Origin: an uncultured Anaerolineaceae bacterium
GTDB lineage: Bacteria > Chloroflexota > Anaerolineae > Anaerolineales > Anaerolineaceae
DNA: 26,103 bases
Reading direction: 5' to 3'
NCBI GenBank assembly: GCA_964444335.1
Contig: CAYUGV010000005.1
Location: 1 to 26,103, forward strand
Shown here: piece by piece, positions 1-13,689 of the stretch
Layout: each line of letters starts with the position of its first letter
Numbering within the stretch: the first letter of the stretch is position 1
Translations under genes and position numbers: made by a program
Notes under the pieces: generated by a model
What the model saw: only the letters and a program-made list of their open reading frames with translations
Database searches by the model: none
Told to the model about the DNA's origin: nothing

Positions 1-590
1 GTCACGATCGTGCCAAAGCCCGAAAGGGTGAAGACGCGGTCCACTGGCAAGCGGGGGCGATTGAGATCGCGCTTGGGAGGCGTGTTGGCTAATAATTCCG
101 CGAGCTTAAGATTGAGTTGCTCCAAACCCTCTCCGGTTTTAGCTGAGACGCGTAAAATCGGAGCATTTTCCAGTGTGGTGCCTTCCACCAATTCCTGGGC
201 TTCAAGCTCGACCAACTCCAGCAATTCGCGGTCTGTTACCAGGTCGCATTTTGTCAGAACGATCAAACCGCGTGATATTTCAAGCAAGTCCAGTATGGCA
301 AGATGTTCGCGTGTTTGTGCGCTGACGCCTTCGTTGGCTGCGATCACAAGTAAAACCGCATCGATGCCGCCGATGCCAGAAAGCATGTTCCCCACGAAGT
401 CGCGATGCCCGGGCACGTCGATGATACCGATCGTTTCCCCTCCCGGCAACACCATGGAGGCAAATCCAAGGTCGATCGTCATCTCACGGGCGATCTCTTC
501 CTTGAGGCGATCCGGATTAGTGCCGGTCAATGCGGAGATCAGGGTTGATTTACCGTGATCCACATGCCCGGCTGTACCGACGATGTGCAT
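1..590 (-). CDS. selB: Selenocysteine-specific translation elongation factor SelB (N-terminal ~196 codons; runs off the window edge; missing from ORF track)
   Basis: Manual translation from ATG at 590: MHIVGTAGHVDHGKSTLISALTGTNPDRLKEEIAREMTIDLGFA...IIDVPGHRDFVGNMLSGIGGID...TKCD...PRLPVDRVFTLSGFGTIVT. G1 GHVDHGKS, effector MTIDLGFA, G3 DVPGH and 'RLPVDRVF..GFGT.VT' are SelB signatures. It starts 2 nt after the upstream TGA. Confidence 0.92.
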   Translation of the reverse strand, partial: MHIVGTAGHVDHGKSTLISALTGTNPDRLKEEIAREMTIDLGFASMVLPGGETIGIIDVPGHRDFVGNMLSGIGGIDAVLLVIAANEGVSAQTREHLAILDLLEISRGLIVLTKCDLVTDRELLELVELEAQELVEGTTLENAPILRVSAKTGEGLEQLNLKLAELLANTPPKRDLNRPRLPVDRVFTLSGFGTIV

Positions 591-5508: not shown

Positions 5509-6924
5509 TCAAAGAATTTCGCCTGCCTGGCGATGAATAAAGCGTCCTTCGCCAGCTTTACCGAACCAGTTTTGACCGTCAACGATCAATTTTCCTCGCA
5601 AAAAGACTTTGACAGGGTAACCACGCAGTTTCCAACCTTCATATAAATTATAGTCTGTGCGGTGGTGCGCCCAAGCCAGCCCATAGTCCAACTCTTTTTC
5701 CGGATTCCACAAGGTGATATCCGCATCCGATCCTTCGGCGAGAGTGCCTTTTTTGGGATAGAGACCAAAGATCCGGGCAGGATTGGTAGCGGTCAATTCC
5801 ACAAAGCGGTTCGGGGTGATGCGGCCGGTGTTAACAGCATGGGTCCAGAAAACCGGCAAGCGGTCTGCTAACCCAGGCAGGCCATTGGGAATAAGAGTGA
5901 AGTTTTCTTTGCCAAGTTCTTTTCCCGGAATGGCAATTTCCCTGCCTTCATAAACGATTGGCTTTCTGCCATTGAAGAAGAACGGACAATGATCGGTCGC
6001 CAGGACCTGGATGGTACCATCCAGCAGGCCTTGCCAGAGCCCTTGCTGGTCAACTGGCTTGCGCATAGGCGGTGAGCAGATCCATTTTGCGCCGTCAGGG
6101 CGTTTGAGGTCGTCTTCGGTGAAAAAGAGATATTGAGGGCAAGTCTCACCCATGGCAGGGACTGCATGTTTGCGGGCGTATGCAAGCTGATCCACCTCAC
6201 CAGCCACGTTCATATGAACAAGGTAAAGGGGTGAATCTGCCTGGGCTGCCAGGGCAGCTGCACGCAAGCTAGCTTCCACCTCGCCCCAGGCAGGTCGGGT
6301 GCGGGCATGCTGGATGGGAGCAGTTTTTCCAGCAGCGAGCGCTTCTGCCACCAGGATGTCGATCACATCCCCATTTTCAGCATGGACCATGGTGAGCAGA
6401 TTATTTTTTCCACCGATCCGCATGACCTTGAAGATATTACCGTCATCCAACCGCAGTCGGCCGTTATAAGCGGTGAAAACCTTCATGCTGGTGACACCCA
6501 ATCGGGGCAGGTCAGGAAGTTCTTCAGCGACCTGTTCGTCGAAATGAGTGATGTTCATGTGAAAACTGTAATCGATGCTGGTTTTTGGGTCCGCCATGGC
6601 ACGATGCCGCGCGATATTTTCTGCGAGGCTGACAGGCTCCTGTGAAACAAAATCGATCATGGTGGTAGTGCCGCCAAAGGCAGCCGCTTTTCCACCAGTG
6701 TAATGATCATCCGCGGAAATCGTACCAAACATTGGCAGATCCAGGTGTACGTGCGGGTCCACGCCGCCGGGGAGGACTAAAAGACCGCTGGCGTCAACAA
6801 TTGCTGCGTCAGGGTCTACGATACGTTCATCGATCCGGCGTATGATCTCATCCTCCACCAGCAAATCCGCCTTGCGGGTCGTTTGCGCGGTGACAATCGT
6901 TCCATTCTTGATGAGCGTTTTCAT
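5509..6924 (-). CDS. hydA: Dihydropyrimidinase / D-hydantoinase (HyuA/HydA family)
   Basis: PGGVDPHVH (HxH), GGTTT, carboxylatable Lys in SMKVF, HAENG, CSPPMR, ATDHCPF, PNGLPG. Confidence 0.93.
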   Translation of the reverse strand: MKTLIKNGTIVTAQTTRKADLLVEDEIIRRIDERIVDPDAAIVDASGLLVLPGGVDPHVHLDLPMFGTISADDHYTGGKAAAFGGTTTMIDFVSQEPVSLAENIARHRAMADPKTSIDYSFHMNITHFDEQVAEELPDLPRLGVTSMKVFTAYNGRLRLDDGNIFKVMRIGGKNNLLTMVHAENGDVIDILVAEALAAGKTAPIQHARTRPAWGEVEASLRAAALAAQADSPLYLVHMNVAGEVDQLAYARKHAVPAMGETCPQYLFFTEDDLKRPDGAKWICSPPMRKPVDQQGLWQGLLDGTIQVLATDHCPFFFNGRKPIVYEGREIAIPGKELGKENFTLIPNGLPGLADRLPVFWTHAVNTGRITPNRFVELTATNPARIFGLYPKKGTLAEGSDADITLWNPEKELDYGLAWAHHRTDYNLYEGWKLRGYPVKVFLRGKLIVDGQNWFGKAGEGRFIHRQAGEIL

Positions 6925-6930
6925 AAAACC

Positions 6931-7497
6931 TCACTTTTTCGCGGAAGTAATGCCGCTCAATAAAGCCAACAAGGTTGGATCCAGGGGAATTTCCGGCAGG
7001 GGAGCCGCATTGTAGGCTTCGCTCCGCGATGCGCGCTCTCGCAGCGCCGCCCAGAGGACTGGTCGTTCCTGGTCGTGTACAGGCAGGTCGCCCAGTTCTT
7101 TCGCATCCCGAACGTGCCGCATGGTCGTGTAGAAGAAGGTCACACGTTTCCAATTGCCGGCGGGAATGGGCTTGGGTAGTTCGATCAGACCGCCCAGTTG
7201 AAGCTTGAAATACTCTTCATTTGCCCTGGGGTGGTCCGGTTGGTCGCGAAAGAGTTGATCACGGGTGGTCAGTTCATGCCCAATGATCGGCGCCAGCCAT
7301 CTGATCTGCCAGCGTTCCCTGGCACCAAAGCTGCCAGTCTGATAGAGCGCCAGGTAGTCGACAGCAATCACCTTGGGGGCGTTTTTCAGCGGAATGCGAT
7401 ACCAGCCCAGAAGGCGGGCAATGTCGAGATCCCTTTGGTTGGGGATGATCGCCACCAGCACCAGGCTGGTATCGTCAATTGTCTCTAGCGCGCTCAA
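6931..7497 (-). CDS. Conserved hypothetical protein, possibly a stand-alone PUA/EVE-like domain (188 aa, TTG start)
   Basis: AAGGAG SD upstream of TTG at 7497, with 9-nt and 6-nt gaps to its neighbours. Motifs LVAI..N.RD..IA...GWYRIP, DYLALYQT..F, GHEL..R.QLF.D.PDHPRA.E.Y.K.QLG, W.RVTF..T. The fold call is from recall, not a search. Confidence 0.75.
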   Translation of the reverse strand: MSALETIDDTSLVLVAIIPNQRDLDIARLLGWYRIPLKNAPKVIAVDYLALYQTGSFGARERWQIRWLAPIIGHELTTRDQLFRDQPDHPRANEEYFKLQLGGLIELPKPIPAGNWKRVTFFYTTMRHVRDAKELGDLPVHDQERPVLWAALRERASRSEAYNAAPLPEIPLDPTLLALLSGITSAKK

Positions 7498-7506
7498 ATG
7501 GCTCCT

Positions 7507-8976
7507 TTAGAGCTCAACCTTCGCCTTGTGGTTGAACTCCTCGATCAAGGCATCGATCTCAGGCTGCTGGGCCTGGACTTCGAGCCAATAATCCGGGTCA
7601 TACCATTGGTCCATGATCTCGCTGTAGGTGCGTCCCTGCTGTTCAACCCAGGTGTAATACTTCAGGTTGTGGATGCGTTGGCGCTCGCGATAACCAAGCT
7701 CTTCCATATAATCGGTGGTAACACCTTGCAGGTAGCGGGCTTCGTCGGCGATGGCATTTTCCTTGCTGTACTCGCCGAATTCTTCGTGCATCTCGATCAG
7801 GCGGCTCTGATAGAGTTCCATCGAGTCAGTCAGAACGGTGAGGACAATATCTTTCTCAGTCAATTCGTTGTACTTGGCGAATTTGATGGCGGAGAGCAGG
7901 TTGGAGATGCTGGAGAATCCCAGCAGGTCGAGCTGATTGACGAAATCGGCGTCGAAGCCAGAGTCGATTAGATGCTGTTTACCTGCAGGCTCATTGAAGA
8001 GACGCGCAAGGTTAACCACTGCGTTGTCATCGATGGCTGTGACGAAGTCAGTGTTCTTCACATTATGTACCCAGGGGACGTGCTTGTCACCAATGCCTTC
8101 GATGCGGTGCGCGCCAAAACCGTTGTTGAGCAGGGTTGGGCACTGCAGCGCTTCACTCGCGATGATCTTCATACCGGGGAATTGCTGCTTGAGGTAGTCG
8201 CCCGTGGCGATCGTACCAGCAGAGCCGGTTGCAGACGCGAAACCAGCGACGTGACCTTTTTCATCCAAAAGCTTGCGCGCTACTTGCTCCATGGCGTTGC
8301 CTGTGATCAGATAATGCCAAAGGTAATTGCCAAATTCCTCGAACTGGTTGAAGATCATCAGATCCTCGCCGCTACGGCGGAGTTCCCAGCATTTATCAAA
8401 GATTTCCTTGACGTTTGATTCAGTGCCTGGTGTGGCGATGACTTCATCTGCCACATTACGCAGCCACTCAAAGCGTTCCTTGCTCATGCCTTCCGGCAGA
8501 ATGGCAACAGATTTACAGGCAAGAAGATGCGAGTCATACGCACCACCACGGCAGTAGTTGCCGGTGGAGGGCCAGACTGCTTTTTGGGTGGTGGGGTCAA
8601 ACTGACCAGTCACGAGGCGCGGCACAAGGCAGCCAAAGGCAGCGCCAACCTTGTGGACTCCGCAGGGGAACCACTTGCCCACCAGGGCAACCACCCGGGC
8701 TTTGGTGCCGGTGAAACTGGAGGGGAACTCGAGGTAGTTGACATCACCAAACAGACCGCCAAACGGTTTGGGTTCATTGTGCCAGGTGATGCGGAACAGA
8801 TTCAGAGGGTGCAGATCCCAAAGCCCGATCTCTTTCAGCCGGTTTTGGATGTCGGCGGGCACCAACGAGGGGTCGCGTTGCTGCGCCAGGGTGGGGATGA
8901 TGATCTTGCGTTCACGTACACGCTGCAGGGTGCGTTCGAGACGGTCTTGCATAATGGTTAAGTCAATTCTTGTCAT
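7507..8976 (-). CDS. Fold-type II PLP-dependent enzyme (PALP; 'subunit beta' family of unknown substrate), 489 aa
   Basis: KWFPCGVHKVGA (Schiff-base Lys), WPSTGNYCRGGA, SATGSAGT phosphate loop, HRIEGIG, terminal TDS. About 150 aa longer than CysK-type enzymes. SD AGAGGA. Confidence 0.85.
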   Translation of the reverse strand: MTRIDLTIMQDRLERTLQRVRERKIIIPTLAQQRDPSLVPADIQNRLKEIGLWDLHPLNLFRITWHNEPKPFGGLFGDVNYLEFPSSFTGTKARVVALVGKWFPCGVHKVGAAFGCLVPRLVTGQFDPTTQKAVWPSTGNYCRGGAYDSHLLACKSVAILPEGMSKERFEWLRNVADEVIATPGTESNVKEIFDKCWELRRSGEDLMIFNQFEEFGNYLWHYLITGNAMEQVARKLLDEKGHVAGFASATGSAGTIATGDYLKQQFPGMKIIASEALQCPTLLNNGFGAHRIEGIGDKHVPWVHNVKNTDFVTAIDDNAVVNLARLFNEPAGKQHLIDSGFDADFVNQLDLLGFSSISNLLSAIKFAKYNELTEKDIVLTVLTDSMELYQSRLIEMHEEFGEYSKENAIADEARYLQGVTTDYMEELGYRERQRIHNLKYYTWVEQQGRTYSEIMDQWYDPDYWLEVQAQQPEIDALIEEFNHKAKVEL

Positions 8977-8997
8977 GGTTGGATTCCTCTGATCTGT

Positions 8998-9969
8998 TTA
9001 TTTTTCTTCTACCCGATCCAGCCGGGTGGGGTCGAGGGTCTTTTCGGGTCCCTCGGCAACAATGTAAAGTGGACGACCTTTCGCTTCGTCGTAAATACGA
9101 CCGATGTACTCTCCGAGGATGCCCATGCCGATCAGCAGGATGCCTGCCAGGAAGATCATGGTCAGCCAGGTTGCCAGCACATATGTGAGGTCAAAGTGGT
9201 TAAAAACTGCCAACCCAAGGTAAACCAGCAGCAGGATCACGCTGAGAGCAACCAGGACGATACCGCCAGTGGTCAGCATTTGAAGCGGAAAAGTCGAAAA
9301 ACCGGTCACGGCGTTCATTGCCAGACGGATCATTTTCTTGAGAGGATAGTGGGTCTGCCCGGCATGACGCGCGGCACGTTTGTATTCCACGCCAATCTGC
9401 CTGAAGCCCACCCAGGCACCCATGCCACGCAGGATGCGGTTGCGTTCGCGCATCTGGTTAATAATGTTCAGTGCCTGGCGGTCGATCAGGCGAAAATCGC
9501 CGGTATTGAGCGGCATTTTGACATCGGTGATCTTGTAAATCAGCTTATAAAAGAGCGAGGCCGTGGTCAGCTTGAACCAGCTTTCCCCTTCGCGCTCGGT
9601 GCGCACTGCGTAAACGATTTGGTAGCCTTCACGCCATTTTTTTATCAAATCAAGGATCACTTCCGGTGGATCCTGCAAGTCCGCGTCGATAATAACGACT
9701 GATTGTCCCCGACTGTAATCCATGCCGGCAGTCACGGCGATTTGGTGCCCGAAATTCCGGGCAAAGATGATCGGGCGTACGCGTGAATCCTGAGAAGCAA
9801 GCTTACGCATGACATCCGTGGAGCCGTCCGAGCTGCCGTCATCCACCAGGATCAATTCCCACTCTTCGCCAGTCTGGTTCAACACTTCGCTGACGCGGGC
9901 GTAGAGCAGGGGGAGATTCTCGAGTTCGTTGTAAATTGGGGCTATGATGCTGAAGACAGGATCAGACAT
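8998..9969 (-). CDS. GT2 polyprenol-phosphate glycosyltransferase (GtrB/YkcC/ArnC-like)
   Basis: P.YNE, VDDGS.DGS, RNFGHQ.A..AG, DADLQDPP, GDFRL.DR, two C-terminal TMs, GEYIGRIY.E.K.RP.Y. Overlaps the upstream gene by 8 nt with SD GGAGGT. Confidence 0.92.
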   Translation of the reverse strand: MSDPVFSIIAPIYNELENLPLLYARVSEVLNQTGEEWELILVDDGSSDGSTDVMRKLASQDSRVRPIIFARNFGHQIAVTAGMDYSRGQSVVIIDADLQDPPEVILDLIKKWREGYQIVYAVRTEREGESWFKLTTASLFYKLIYKITDVKMPLNTGDFRLIDRQALNIINQMRERNRILRGMGAWVGFRQIGVEYKRAARHAGQTHYPLKKMIRLAMNAVTGFSTFPLQMLTTGGIVLVALSVILLLVYLGLAVFNHFDLTYVLATWLTMIFLAGILLIGMGILGEYIGRIYDEAKGRPLYIVAEGPEKTLDPTRLDRVEEK

Positions 9970-11218
9970 GGAGCACCTCCTTTAGTTGTTTCAATGTTGG
10001 CTCAATGATCGGGGCAGGCACTACGGCTCGCATGACGGCATTGACGTCTTTCAGCCCGCTGCCAGTGCAAAGTACCAGGGCGGGTTCGTCTGGGTGATGC
10101 AGACCTAGCCGGATGGCTGCCTGGAGCCCGGCATATGCCGCAGCGGCAGCCGGTTCCACGAAAAGGCCTGCTTTACCAAGTATCGGGATGGCTTGGAGGA
10201 TCTCCTGGTCTGAAACGGTCAGGAAGTACCCGCCGCTCTGCTTAACCCGTTTGAGTGCACGGAGTCCATCCCGCGGCAGGTCCACGCTGATGCTGTCCGC
10301 GACGGTTTTTGCGCTGACCGGTTCGATAACATCTTTGCCAGCCGTAAAAGCATTGAAAATGGCCGCGGAGCCTTCAGCCTGCACGCCCACCAGCCTGGGT
10401 AATCTTTCAATCCAGCCCAGAGCCAGCAAGTCGGCAAAGCCTTTGGCCACGCCGCTGAGGATGTTGCCATCACCCACCGGGATGAAAACGGTCATGTTTT
10501 GATCAAATCGATCGCGATTTCGCAACACCTGTTCCCAGATCTCGAGCCCAGCCGTCTTTTTGCCTTCCACGGTGTAGGGGTTGTAACCAGTGTTGCGGTT
10601 ATACCAACCGAGTTCATCTGAAGCTTCGATACTCAGGTCAAACGCCTGGTCATAGGTTCCATCCACCAACACAACCTTTGCGCCAAACGTCAATAATTGT
10701 GCCACCTTGGCGGGTGGAGCGCTGCGCGGTGCAATAATGACCGCTTTTTTACCCACACTGGCAGCCATGCAAGCCATGGCTGCGCCGGCGTTTCCAGTCG
10801 AGGCTGCTATGATGGTCTCAATGTCCGCCTCAATCGCGCGGGCGATCACCAGGGCGCTGGCACGATCCTTGAAAGACGCGCTTGGATTACGGCTCTCGTC
10901 TTTAATCCATAATTCACGCAACCCAAGGGATTTTTGAAGGGATTCAGGGCGGTAGACCGGAGTCCAACCCACCTGGTGCAAGGGTATCTGATTGAAACCG
11001 GGATCAGGAGCGGCAAGCAGTGGGGCGTAACGCCATATTGAGGATTCTTTGCTCCTCAATATGGCAGATTGATCAATTTCAACAGGATTTTCTTCAAAGC
11101 TGAAGTGGGTATCCAGGTTGCCACCACAGGTCAGACAGTTATAGGTGACCTCGTCGGGCGCAAAACACTGCCCACATTCAGAGCATTGAAAGTAGCTAAG
11201 CGGCATACTGTTTCCCAT
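9962..11218 (-). CDS. Threonine synthase-like PLP enzyme with N-terminal CxxC..CxxC zinc ribbon
   Basis: CSECG..CLTCGG, WRY..LL, G.TP, KDESRNPSASFKDR, ASTGNA, NPY..EG.KT, PVGDG, EPAAAAA.AG, TGSGLKD. No hom/thrB nearby, so the thrC symbol is withheld. The start may be the second Met (MPLSY). Confidence 0.85.
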   Translation of the reverse strand: MGNSMPLSYFQCSECGQCFAPDEVTYNCLTCGGNLDTHFSFEENPVEIDQSAILRSKESSIWRYAPLLAAPDPGFNQIPLHQVGWTPVYRPESLQKSLGLRELWIKDESRNPSASFKDRASALVIARAIEADIETIIAASTGNAGAAMACMAASVGKKAVIIAPRSAPPAKVAQLLTFGAKVVLVDGTYDQAFDLSIEASDELGWYNRNTGYNPYTVEGKKTAGLEIWEQVLRNRDRFDQNMTVFIPVGDGNILSGVAKGFADLLALGWIERLPRLVGVQAEGSAAIFNAFTAGKDVIEPVSAKTVADSISVDLPRDGLRALKRVKQSGGYFLTVSDQEILQAIPILGKAGLFVEPAAAAAYAGLQAAIRLGLHHPDEPALVLCTGSGLKDVNAVMRAVVPAPIIEPTLKQLKEVLHV

Positions 11219-11318: not shown

Positions 11319-12266
11319 CTAAGGCACAATCCAGGTGCCGGTTTTGCCTTCGAGGGCGTCCTTGATGTGTTCAGGGTCGGTGATCAGAGCCTTCTTACCG
11401 CCCTGGTCCATGAATTTCAGGATGGCTTGGATCTTTGGCAGCATCGAGCCTTTGGCGAACTGACCTTCAGCCAGGTATGCACGGGCTTCAGCAACTGTCA
11501 TCTGGTCGAGCCACTTTTGGTCCGGCTTGTTGAAGTTGATCGCCACTTTTTCGACCGCGGTGCTGATCAGGAACAGATCGGCTTTGATCATGCTGGCAAG
11601 AATGGCTGAGCCAAAATCCTTGTCGATTACAGCTTCCACGCCGGTGAGATCGCCATTTTCAAGCTGCATCACCGGGATGCCGCCGCCGCCAACCGCCACG
11701 ACCACAAATCCATGGTCAATCAAGCTGCGGATTGCGTCTGCTTCAACAATGGTTTGGGGGATGGGGGAAGGGACAACACGGCGCCAACCGCGACCGGCAT
11801 CTTCCACCATGGTCCAGCCTTCTTTGGACATCTTCTCTTTTGCGGCTGCCTCATCCATGAAGGAACCGATGGGTTTGGTTGGGTTCTGGAAAGCAGGGTC
11901 GTTACGATCGACGATGGTCTGCGTGATCACAGTGGCAGCTTGCTTCTCGATCCCGCGCAAGCGGAATTCGTTGTGCAGGGCTTGCTGGAACATATAGCCG
12001 ATGGCACCCTGGGTGTCCGCGCCACAATAATCCAGCGGAACTTCGTGCAGCTCGTGGGACGCGATTTCAGAGCGGCGCAAGATAAAGCCTACCTGTGGAC
12101 CGTTTCCGTGCGTGACAACCACATCCCAGCCATCAATGATCATGCTGGCGATGTGCTTCATCGTTTCCACTGCAGCCTGATACTGATCTGGAACAGTCTG
12201 ATGGTTCTTGTCTTTGATTAATGCGTTACCGCCTACTGCAACTACTGCCAAACCTTTGCTTTGCAT
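11319..12266 (-). CDS. arcC: Carbamate kinase (315 aa)
   Basis: VVAVGGNAL, THGNGPQVG, A.TQG.IGY, NPTKPIG.F, EDAGRGWRRVVPSP.P, GGGGIPV, EAVIDKD, GSMLPK. Start reassigned to the ATG at 12266 (MQSKG), which has an AGGAGA SD. Confidence 0.96.
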   Translation of the reverse strand: MQSKGLAVVAVGGNALIKDKNHQTVPDQYQAAVETMKHIASMIIDGWDVVVTHGNGPQVGFILRRSEIASHELHEVPLDYCGADTQGAIGYMFQQALHNEFRLRGIEKQAATVITQTIVDRNDPAFQNPTKPIGSFMDEAAAKEKMSKEGWTMVEDAGRGWRRVVPSPIPQTIVEADAIRSLIDHGFVVVAVGGGGIPVMQLENGDLTGVEAVIDKDFGSAILASMIKADLFLISTAVEKVAINFNKPDQKWLDQMTVAEARAYLAEGQFAKGSMLPKIQAILKFMDQGGKKALITDPEHIKDALEGKTGTWIVP

Positions 12267-12303
12267 ATAAAGAATCTCCTCGGAAGTCCTATTATTATTT
12301 GGT

Positions 12304-13689
12304 TTAAACTTGTAACAGGCGTTTGGTCGCCTGGTTGTGTTTCTCAATTTGTTTGTGAACATCAAGTGTAGTCAGGTGACCTTCCCTCACGATAACCTTA
12401 CCTCCGATGACGGTCCAATTAGCCTTAACTGGTTGGCAGAAGAGGATCGTGGCAAGGGGGTCGGTGATCGCGCCGGCATAGTCCAGTTGGTCCAGGTCCA
12501 TGGCGAAGAAATCCGCGCACTTTCCAACCTCGAGCGAACCGATATCTTTACGGCCGAGCACCGAAGCGCCGCCGCGAGTGGCAATCGAGAGCGCCTGGCG
12601 GGCGGTCATCAGGGGAGGGGCGTCTGGCGCGGAACGTGAAGCGCCTTTGATGCCGCTGTTGAGACGCGCGAGCAATAACGCCTGCCGGACTTCATTTAGC
12701 ATGTGCGAACCGTCGTTGCTGGCAGAGCCATCCACGCCAAGCCCCAGCTTTACTCCGCGAGCCAACATGTTCATTACCGGCGCGATGCCGGAAGCAAGCC
12801 TCATATTGGAGGATGGGCAGTGAGCCACGCCGCAACCATGGTGGGCGTAAAGATCCATTTCGGCTTCGTTCACCCAGACAGAATGGGCAAACCAAACGTC
12901 ATCCCCAATCCAGTCGACCGTCTGCATGTAAGCCACTGGCTTGTGTCCGAATTTCGCAAGGCAGAAGTCGTCTTCGTCTTCGGTCTCGGCCAGATGGGTG
13001 TGGAGGTGGACGCCATATTTACGTGCCATGGCTGCCGACTCACGCATCAGTTCGCCTGTCACGCTGAAGGGGGAACACGGCGCGAGGACAATCTGAAGTT
13101 TGGACCCGGGTTTGGGGTCATGGTAGCGCTGGATCAGGCGTTCGCTATCTTTGAGGATGTTCTCTTCGGTGTCCACGACGGAATCCGGTGGAAGCCCGCC
13201 CTGCGACTGCCCAAGGCTCATTGATCCGCGCGAAGCGTGCAGGCGCACTCCGATCTCTGCAGCGGCAGAGATCTCATCGTCCAGCTTGCTGCCATTGGGG
13301 AATAGGTAGAGGTGGTCCGAAGCGGTCGTGCAGCCTGAAAGTGCGAGCTCTGCCAGGGCGGTTTGCGTGCTGGTGAAGATATCTTCCGGGTTCATGCGCG
13401 CCCAGATCGGGTAGAGCGTGGTCAGCCAATTGAAAAGGTTGGCGTCCTGCGCAGCAGGCAAAGCGCGAGTCAGGGTCTGATAAAAGTGGTGATGGGTGTT
13501 AACAAGACCCGGCAGAACCACATGGTGCCGCAGGTCGAGCACTTCGTCCGCAGTTTGTGGCAAGTCAGCCTGGCTTCCGATCTGTTCGATGAAACCATCC
13601 CGGCAGAAAATTGCGGCATTTTTCAATTCGCGGTCTTGCCCGTCCATAGTGACGATCAGGTCAGCGTTTTTGACGAGTAGGGTCGGCAT
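12304..13689 (-). CDS. 8-oxoguanine deaminase / AtzB-like metal-dependent amidohydrolase
   Basis: PGLVNTHHHFYQTLTRA, LF.WL..LYPIW, GCTT.SDHLY, RGSMSLG.SQGGLPPD, APCSPFSV, HTHLAET, AHCPSSNMRLASG, GVDGSASND. These match the Pseudomonas PA0142-type 8-oxoguanine deaminase family. Confidence 0.88.
   Translation of the reverse strand: MPTLLVKNADLIVTMDGQDRELKNAAIFCRDGFIEQIGSQADLPQTADEVLDLRHHVVLPGLVNTHHHFYQTLTRALPAAQDANLFNWLTTLYPIWARMNPEDIFTSTQTALAELALSGCTTASDHLYLFPNGSKLDDEISAAAEIGVRLHASRGSMSLGQSQGGLPPDSVVDTEENILKDSERLIQRYHDPKPGSKLQIVLAPCSPFSVTGELMRESAAMARKYGVHLHTHLAETEDEDDFCLAKFGHKPVAYMQTVDWIGDDVWFAHSVWVNEAEMDLYAHHGCGVAHCPSSNMRLASGIAPVMNMLARGVKLGLGVDGSASNDGSHMLNEVRQALLLARLNSGIKGASRSAPDAPPLMTARQALSIATRGGASVLGRKDIGSLEVGKCADFFAMDLDQLDYAGAITDPLATILFCQPVKANWTVIGGKVIVREGHLTTLDVHKQIEKHNQATKRLLQV

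Follow-up and report, generated by a model that had tools for sequence, protein, structure and literature searches.

A cysteine synthase-like enzyme family and a threonine synthase-like partner as a candidate two-enzyme ending of the bacterial reductive urate pathway

In the reductive urate (2,8-dioxopurine) pathway, which was worked out only in 2025, 2,3-diureidopropionate loses its two ureido groups through YgeW, with YqeA making ATP, and through YgeY, and YgeX (DpaL) then splits the resulting 2,3-diaminopropionate (DAP) to pyruvate and ammonia (PMC12507026; bioRxiv 10.1101/2025.04.24.650524). Albizziin is an intermediate of this route (PMC12507026), and DAP accumulates in a ygeX mutant (bioRxiv 10.1101/2025.04.24.650524). 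Here, we analyzed a 26,103-nt stretch of DNA (hereafter “the window”) from an uncultured Anaerolineaceae bacterium of the phylum Chloroflexota (contig CAYUGV010000005.1), in which a minus-strand gene at positions 7507–8976 encodes a 489-aa pyridoxal 5′-phosphate (PLP) enzyme of fold type II, hereafter PLP489. PLP489 belongs to an unassigned family of the CysK/CBS/SbnA structural clade. It represents a new subfamily of a known superfamily, and its part in this known pathway has not been described before. Based on its fold and motifs, its linkage to urate genes across phyla, a distribution complementary to ygeX among Clostridia, and the recurrence of a second, ThrC-like PLP enzyme at its side, we propose that PLP489 is, on balance, probably half of a two-enzyme module at the end of the reductive urate pathway, acting as the companion of a ThrC-like enzyme that would serve as a DpaL-like deaminase. 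The original prediction, made from the sequence alone, had instead placed PLP489 by itself in the YgeX slot, or had it eliminate urea or carbamate directly from a ureido intermediate.

PLP489 is one intact open reading frame (ORF) starting at an ATG, as seen in both the ORF call and the translation, with a Shine-Dalgarno-like AGAGGAA ~9 nt upstream. At least 8000 database proteins match it, including close Anaerolineaceae relatives of the same length at 75–95% identity, and identity is still 62–68% across more than 10 phyla, with members in Desulfobacteraceae, SAR324, Vallitalea, Halanaerobiales, Terriglobia, Acidimicrobiia, Opitutales, KSB1, and Atribacterota. Given these relatives, PLP489 is not a chance ORF. 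Database labels for the family read “cysteine synthase”, and the best hidden Markov model (HMM) matches of PLP489 are CysK, CysM, and CBS, as would be expected of a cysteine synthase or CBS variant with an ordinary role in sulfur-amino-acid metabolism, placed among purine genes only through inherited synteny. However, PLP489 scored 68–91 bits with the CysK, CysM, and CBS models, whose cut-offs are 344–510 bits (90.8 vs 350.95 bits for the CysK model TIGR01139, which places it outside that family), and 34.6 vs 350 bits with the SbnA model, i.e., at most about a quarter of the cut-off for these models, while a true housekeeping CysK (316 aa, 417 bits) is encoded elsewhere in the same genome, on contig C154. 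The models for DpaL/YgeX (NF006058 and TIGR03528) did not match PLP489 at E ≤ 0.01, and a BLAST comparison with the DpaL of its own genome gave E = 0.39. We conclude that PLP489 is neither a cysteine synthase nor a DpaL homologue, and the family is indeed uncharacterized, as originally suggested.

In structure, PLP489 is closest to CysK/CysM and CBS. The AlphaFold model, built from a 36-sequence alignment, had a mean predicted local distance difference test (pLDDT) of 95, and solved CysK and CBS chains aligned to approximately residues 41–403. Foldseek matched this core to CysK, CBS, β-cyanoalanine synthase, CmnB, and SbnA with TM-scores (target-normalized) of 0.8–0.87, and VIA gave Z values of 30–35 to CysK, CBS, CmnB, and SbnA (32–35 for CysK/CysM and CBS, at 22–25% sequence identity), vs 23.4 to DpaL (4d9g) and ~22 to TrpB. 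The Pfam family PF00291 (PALP) matched residues 129–322 narrowly above its gathering score (41.7 vs 35 bits), and the CysK-like part recognizable by sequence begins near residue 85. The PLP motifs first noticed in the sequence (HK, STGN, and GSAGT) are all present and in register with CysK. The predicted Schiff-base lysine, Lys109 (codon at 8650–8652, minus strand, as are all features of the gene), aligns with the CysK lysine region and forms, as H108-K109, the center of a TrpB-like GxHKVG motif that is kept in all 91 aligned members of both the main and the distant subfamily. The Asn loop S137-T138-G139-N140 (8557–8568) aligned to the TSGN of solved CysK, where it binds the substrate carboxylate, and PSTGN[YF] is found in all 91 members. 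Likewise, the glycine loop for the PLP phosphate, G251-S-A-G-T255 (8212–8226), is conserved in the family and aligned to CysK GTGGT, and PLP489 shares with CysK/CysM and CBS the QF-motif Gln and the Ser that faces the pyridine nitrogen (the Ser355/356 position, which aligns with CysK). Judging from these alignments, the CysK-type catalytic apparatus is intact and PLP489 is predicted to be catalytically competent.

Superimposed on this shared core are several differences from CysK. PLP489 reads H-K-V-G where CysK reads S-V-K-D-R, and a family-specific loop, G294-I-G-D-K-H299 (8080–8097), lies at the β-substituent pocket of CysK, so that the A-G-F of the CysK GIGAGF loop is replaced by D-K-H; HRIEGIGDK is invariant in the main and distant subfamilies (91 members). 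PLP489 also has ~40–80 extra N-terminal and ~85 extra C-terminal residues relative to CysK/CysM and CBS. The helical N-terminal extension (~residues 1–43; 8848–8976) was modeled with pLDDT values of 85–98, structure matches starting only at model residues 40–46, and P28, L60, and W65 are invariant in this part of the protein. The helical C-terminal extension (~residues 404–489; 7510–7767) lies outside the range aligned to any solved chain, was modeled at pLDDT 87–98, and includes an HNLKY-x-TW-[VI]-EQQG motif conserved in the main subfamily. In both structure searches, the solved chains that matched left the two extensions uncovered. According to the model, then, the long extensions first noticed in the sequence are real and confidently folded helices.

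Within the same structural clade, SbnA (Z 31.6; 5d84) and CmnB/VioB (Z 32.5 to CmnB; 8if7) are relevant to the possible chemistry of PLP489. Both form N3-substituted 2,3-diaminopropionate (ACEGA) in L-DAP biosynthesis, and their scaffold can hence make, and in principle break, the C3–N bond of DAP derivatives. PLP489 differs from them in its low SbnA model score, in the lack of an SbnB/CmnK-type dehydrogenase partner, and in a context that is catabolic instead of dedicated to siderophore or antibiotic biosynthesis.

This catabolic context was evaluated across 80 PLP489 loci, found with a 6-sequence alignment, in which ORFs were called and neighbors clustered. The most frequent neighbors were the ThrC-like enzyme (46 loci), a 188-aa protein (38), a hydantoinase (37), a GT2 glycosyltransferase (33), carbamoyltransferases (32), and carbamate kinase (27), along with recurrent M20 peptidases, molybdenum (Mo)-hydroxylase subunits, GntR regulators, BMP-type ABC importers, and adenine deaminases. 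Comparison with the E. coli ygeW–xdhD region and NCBIfam models identified genuine orthologs among them, including YgeW (up to 67% identity, 668 bits), YgeY (73% identity, 707 bits), YgfK (1312 bits), and SsnA (557 bits), and likewise HyuA, YqeA, and XdhD. Such linkage was seen in loci from Vallitalea, Desulfobacteraceae, SAR324, Halanaerobiales, Terriglobia, Bacillota, and Chloroflexota, and hyuA, yqeA, and an ssnA-type amidohydrolase share the co-directional run of PLP489 in the window as they do in other phyla. These observations support a genuine tie between PLP489 and the hydantoinase/carbamate kinase purine pathway across phyla, and the link first proposed from this one locus holds well beyond it.

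Some of this linkage must nonetheless be discounted. The whole window is syntenic among close Anaerolineaceae relatives, which makes local linkage uninformative there, and the adjacency of folD to PLP489 is restricted to the closest of them. This synteny is what an inherited position of a sulfur-amino-acid enzyme would produce, yet unrelated phyla show the purine linkage too, in gene orders that differ, the distribution of PLP489 is complementary to that of ygeX (see below), and the genome has its true CysK elsewhere. We therefore regard an ordinary sulfur-amino-acid role as highly improbable.

The same neighborhoods bear on the proposal that 3-ureidoalanine (albizziin) is the substrate of PLP489 and loses urea or carbamate in one step, so that YgeY and YgeX would both be bypassed. 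The Asp-Lys-His loop could bind a ureido group, the CysK homolog O-ureidoserine synthase DcsD (PDB 3x44) was among the structure matches, and albizziin is itself on the pathway (PMC12507026). A true YgeY, however, adjoins PLP489 or lies near it in 11 of 11 Clostridia cases, and scores above its cut-off in 33 of 56 PLP489-carrying genomes. YgeW-type transferases and carbamate kinase are kept beside PLP489 as well, and for that reason this proposal fits worst among the alternatives; no urease was seen in the PLP489 loci, and a near-obligate ThrC-like partner would be left unexplained. Direct ureido elimination thus appears very unlikely, and the associated suggestion of a reduced need for YgeY and YgeW is contradicted by the true orthologs of both that adjoin PLP489.

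Next, we compared the distribution of PLP489 to that of YgeX/DpaL, another fold-type II PLP enzyme, which takes the same place next to ygeY in operons of clusters that are otherwise homologous although its sequence has no detectable relationship to PLP489 and its structure matches less well than that of CysK. An unselected sample of 399 genomes of the class Clostridia was searched for YgeY, and 31 were positive after exclusion of the genome chosen as center. DpaL was present in 19 of these 31, none of which had PLP489 near ygeY (two carried an unlinked PLP489 paralog, at 32–33% identity), whereas among the 12 without DpaL, 11 carried a PLP489-family gene adjoining or close to ygeY (Fisher p = 1.4e-7, although related genomes do not count as independent cases). 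Six of these 11 proteins were 57–61% identical to the window protein and five 36–39%. More broadly, a ygeX ortholog was found in only 1 of the 80 PLP489 loci, no DpaL was detected anywhere in five phylogenetically distant carrier genomes, and 28 of the 33 ygeY-positive genomes with PLP489 lacked DpaL altogether. DpaL co-occurred with PLP489 in 8 of the 56 carrier genomes, including the one under study.

In Clostridia clusters, PLP489 does occupy the YgeX slot, although not alone: unlike YgeX, it is accompanied by a second PLP enzyme. This ThrC-like enzyme, encoded in the window at 9962–11218 (minus strand) and bearing an N-terminal Cys4 zinc ribbon, has an ortholog in 53 of the 56 PLP489 carrier genomes. 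Among the 31 ygeY-positive Clostridia, it was found (at 316–346 bits) in the same 11 genomes and in no other, mostly in the gene order ThrC-like, PLP489, ygeY. Threonine synthases are its closest solved relatives, and the short bacterial ones are the closest of all (E 7e-50). Nevertheless, three positions that do not vary among four solved threonine synthases are altered in all 57 ThrC-like orthologs: STGNT became STGNA, NPxR became NPx[T/M/L], and VGNAG became VGDG, with the loss of a Thr, an Arg, and an Asn and the gain of an Asp. In the threonine synthase of Thermus thermophilus, these three positions presumably hold the substrate phosphate. In the window, the ThrC-like gene scores narrowly above the cut-off of the thrC model (168.3 vs 167.1 bits) and is the sole over-cut-off thrC match in a 77%-complete genome; annotation pipelines will label it threonine synthase. 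Apparent fusions, i.e., ThrC-like ORFs of 650–680 aa, contained no additional domain and probably reflect ORF calls that run too long.

The few genomes in which this trio is incomplete help to apportion the roles. PLP489 occurs with DpaL and without a ThrC-like gene (best ThrC-like matches ≤117 bits) in three lineages: a Bacillota genome (G054) whose cluster reads ygeY-ygeW-ssnA-ygfK-xdhD-hyuA-PLP489-ygeX, a 100%-complete Anaerolineae genome from the family of the window (G580), and a Desulfuromonadales genome (G049). Conversely, at least four Chloroflexota genomes (G579, G697, G541, and G559) have the ThrC-like gene with neither PLP489 nor DpaL, and in G579 a complete cluster ends in the ThrC-like gene alone. 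The remaining combination, ThrC-like with DpaL and without PLP489, was absent from the genomes searched. On the simplest reading of these patterns, DpaL and the ThrC-like enzyme are interchangeable in the DAP-deaminating step, and PLP489 is a frequent companion that can serve either lyase and is dispensable in some clusters. Because of the lineages with PLP489 and DpaL alone and the genomes with the ThrC-like gene alone, the ThrC-like enzyme is the better candidate for a DpaL analog.

The opposite assignment, in which PLP489 itself is a non-orthologous DAP ammonia-lyase and the ThrC-like enzyme a helper, would account for the position of PLP489 by ygeY and for its absence from Clostridia ygeX clusters. 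Enzymes of the CysK clade readily form an aminoacrylate, Asp297 of the family-specific loop could bind the β-amine and help to protonate it, and in three loci (L072, L074, and L008) PLP489 lies by ygeY or ygeW with no ThrC-like gene nearby. The genomes of these three loci do carry a ThrC-like gene elsewhere, however, and CysK-type enzymes normally keep their aminoacrylate for a nucleophile without releasing it. A lyase activity of PLP489 would also be redundant in the three lineages that combine it with DpaL and no ThrC-like gene, including the one with hyuA-PLP489-ygeX, and is hard to reconcile with the complete G579 cluster that closes on the ThrC-like gene. We consider this assignment unlikely.

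PLP489 might alternatively perform a β-replacement, e.g., convert DAP with sulfide or water to cysteine or serine, as an anabolic outlet or to feed the partner lyase. Its core is CysK/CBS-like and contains a TrpB-like His-Lys, a motif common in enzymes whose substrates have poor leaving groups that need activation. In one Chloroflexota locus (L127 of genome G597, 8903–11201), moreover, a bona fide CysK of normal size (361 bits, cut-off 351) with a GIGDGF loop comes next after the ThrC-like gene. The urate cluster of this locus, which represents one Chloroflexota family, also includes an FMN-dependent dehydrogenase and a metallo-β-lactamase-fold protein. Either DpaL or the ThrC-like enzyme could close the pathway without any such step, though, and the genome of the window already has its housekeeping CysK. 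An anabolic side branch would leave unexplained both the 62–68% identity across phyla and the tight operon coupling. β-Replacement consequently seems quite unlikely, even more so than a lyase role of PLP489.

Returning to the two-enzyme module, XdhD, a reductase, an SsnA-type amidohydrolase, HyuA, a YgeW-type carbamoyltransferase with carbamate kinase, and YgeY would together convert the purine to DAP, after which a ThrC-like enzyme with a remodeled distal pocket and PLP489 would replace YgeX/DpaL. From the distribution data, the ThrC-like enzyme would be the DpaL-like deaminase, accompanied by PLP489. The substrate of PLP489 would be a 3-N-substituted alanine, DAP more probably than 3-ureidoalanine, held by the CysK-type carboxylate loop. 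The invariant Asp297-Lys298 of the GIGDK loop would face the substituent on the β-nitrogen, with Asp297 pairing with the β-ammonium, and the chemistry may proceed through an external aldimine or an aminoacrylate. The specific role we favor for PLP489 would be to supply or remove a form of DAP that the partner lyase cannot use, for instance by interconverting D- and L-DAP. This possibility is raised because the hydantoinase route is D-specific while L-specificity would be expected of a lyase with threonine synthase ancestry, and an enantio-complementary PLP489 would explain why two enzymes replace one. We hold this stereochemical role to be speculative and, taken by itself, doubtful. A two-enzyme precedent from C3 amino-acid catabolism is the cysteate racemase CuyB with a D-cysteate sulfo-lyase (PMC11193023), where stereochemistry is adjusted ahead of a fold-type II lyase. 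CuyB is a PLP-independent racemase of the Asp/Glu type, unlike PLP489, for which a racemase role is putative.

A wider version of this idea, in which the pair amounts to a chemically different ending of anaerobic urate degradation and PLP489 has an activity new to the CysK scaffold (DAP racemase or epimerase, or N3-substituted-alanine lyase or β-replacement enzyme), strikes us as possible but less likely than not. If true, the new activity would let a lyase derived from threonine synthase use the D-configured product of the hydantoinase route.

Several observations weigh against the two-enzyme module and the role it assigns to PLP489. In the genus of the window, 4 of 4 genomes hold PLP489, the ThrC-like gene, and DpaL together, so that the pair cannot be a simple DpaL equivalent there. 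In the genome under study (G000), the bona fide DpaL (contig C14, 15989–17182; locus L097, 9942–11207, minus strand; 494 bits, cut-off 276) lies between degV and murI, unlinked to purine genes. Across the Chloroflexota sample, DpaL is enriched in PLP489 carriers (6 of 36, vs 4 of 215), not depleted. The anti-correlation with ygeX expected in the original prediction is clear in Clostridia (11 of 12 vs 0 of 19) and fails in the window’s own genus and in G054, where the two genes are adjacent; its concern that PLP489 might co-occur with ygeX was borne out in part, through the DpaL of this genome and genus. Neither ygeW, ygeY, xdhD, nor ygfK is present in the window, and the 77%-complete genome gave no YgeY match at E ≤ 1e-40 and a single carbamoyltransferase, at 29% identity. 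A 95%-identical relative (G006) does encode YgeY (485 bits) beside a carbamoyltransferase, on another contig. The exceptional genomes from which the division of labor is read are few, and some are metagenome-assembled genomes (MAGs), and a PLP489 subfamily of 46–49% identity in other Chloroflexota occurs without a ThrC-like gene. As for catalysis, the CysK clade is not known to include a racemase, and the active site offers no nameable base on the second face, Tyr141 being Phe in 16 of 91 members.

These findings suggest that the end of the gout-relevant urate pathway probably works differently in many bacteria. The pathway is serving as the basis for defining which gut bacteria degrade uric acid and for building probiotics to counter hyperuricemia and gout, and YgeX is its end in both studies (PMC12507026; bioRxiv 10.1101/2025.04.24.650524), neither of which, nor the other urate-pathway literature consulted, mentions cysteine synthase-like or threonine synthase-like enzymes. 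One of the two scored “YgeX” in other genomes by Pfam PF00291 alone, a generic family that cannot tell YgeX from PLP489 or the ThrC-like enzyme. Should the pair be the real ending in many anaerobes, surveys that require ygeX would miss such organisms, which in our sample amount to about one-third of the Clostridia with ygeY and most of the Anaerolineae carriers. Two large families labeled “cysteine synthase” and “threonine synthase” would then be mis-annotated, and at least one new PLP activity would await assignment.

In the window, PLP489 lies within a tightly packed co-directional run of amidohydrolase, carbamate kinase, ThrC-like, GT2, PLP489, 188-aa protein, and D-hydantoinase genes, all on the minus strand. 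The GT2 gene (8998–9969) encodes a polyprenyl-phosphate-type glycosyltransferase (Pfam Glycos_transf_2), shares 8 nt with the ThrC-like gene, and is separated from PLP489 by a 21-nt gap. In 33 of 80 loci, GT2 separates the two PLP genes; it was not found there in the loci from other phyla examined in detail, and has no evident role in purine breakdown. The 188-aa protein (p188; 6931–7497) starts 9 nt after PLP489 and adjoins or lies near it in 38 of 80 loci. It matched no Pfam or NCBIfam model, and its look-alike clusters in the Atlas are mostly from Chloroflexota, with weak PUA-, ASCH-, or DUF1802-like leads (scores 0.81–0.84). A third conserved component was also sought, but in Clostridia and Halanaerobiales the small genes close to the pair encode HTH-cupin and TetR regulators, with no p188 homolog among the small proteins of these loci. 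Other recurrent neighbors (aminotransferase, GH18, transporters, PlsY, and an F420-type oxidoreductase) do not point to a mechanism, and genes of serine synthesis did not recur in the loci.

The D-hydantoinase/dihydropyrimidinase (5509–6924; TIGR02033, 507 bits, cut-off 393) is the HyuA counterpart, the best member of its cluster being 51% identical to E. coli HyuA, and the carbamate kinase (11319–12365; TIGR00746, 392 bits, cut-off 358) is the YqeA counterpart, with a best cluster member 52% identical to E. coli YqeA. As called mechanically, the carbamate kinase is a 348-aa ORF with a TTG start and a 62-nt overlap with the upstream gene; since the profile match begins at residue 38–41, the start is more likely the ATG at 12266, which removes the overlap. 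The amidohydrolase (12304–13689) belongs to the SsnA/8-oxoguanine-deaminase group (NF006055, 673 bits, cut-off 532) and scores below the cut-off of the SsnA models. It is 44–47% identical to a second amidohydrolase found beside SsnA in Clostridia clusters with the PLP pair (loci L099–L103), and this second amidohydrolase was absent from the ygeX-bearing clusters inspected.

Two further observations concern other steps of purine degradation. In many Chloroflexota clusters (loci L015, L037, L054, L059, L062, and L067), two tandem carbamoyltransferases of the ornithine carbamoyltransferase (OTCase) type, ~315–330 aa long and below every curated cut-off, precede carbamate kinase, often in genomes without YgeY. 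In these bacteria, both ureido groups might be removed by phosphorolysis, for a yield of two ATP per urate. Finally, selB lies at the edge of the window (3–590, minus strand), and four Mo-hydroxylase large-subunit genes are found elsewhere in the genome (contigs C1, C12, and C28 of G000), which would fit the presence of selenium-dependent purine hydroxylases in this bacterium.

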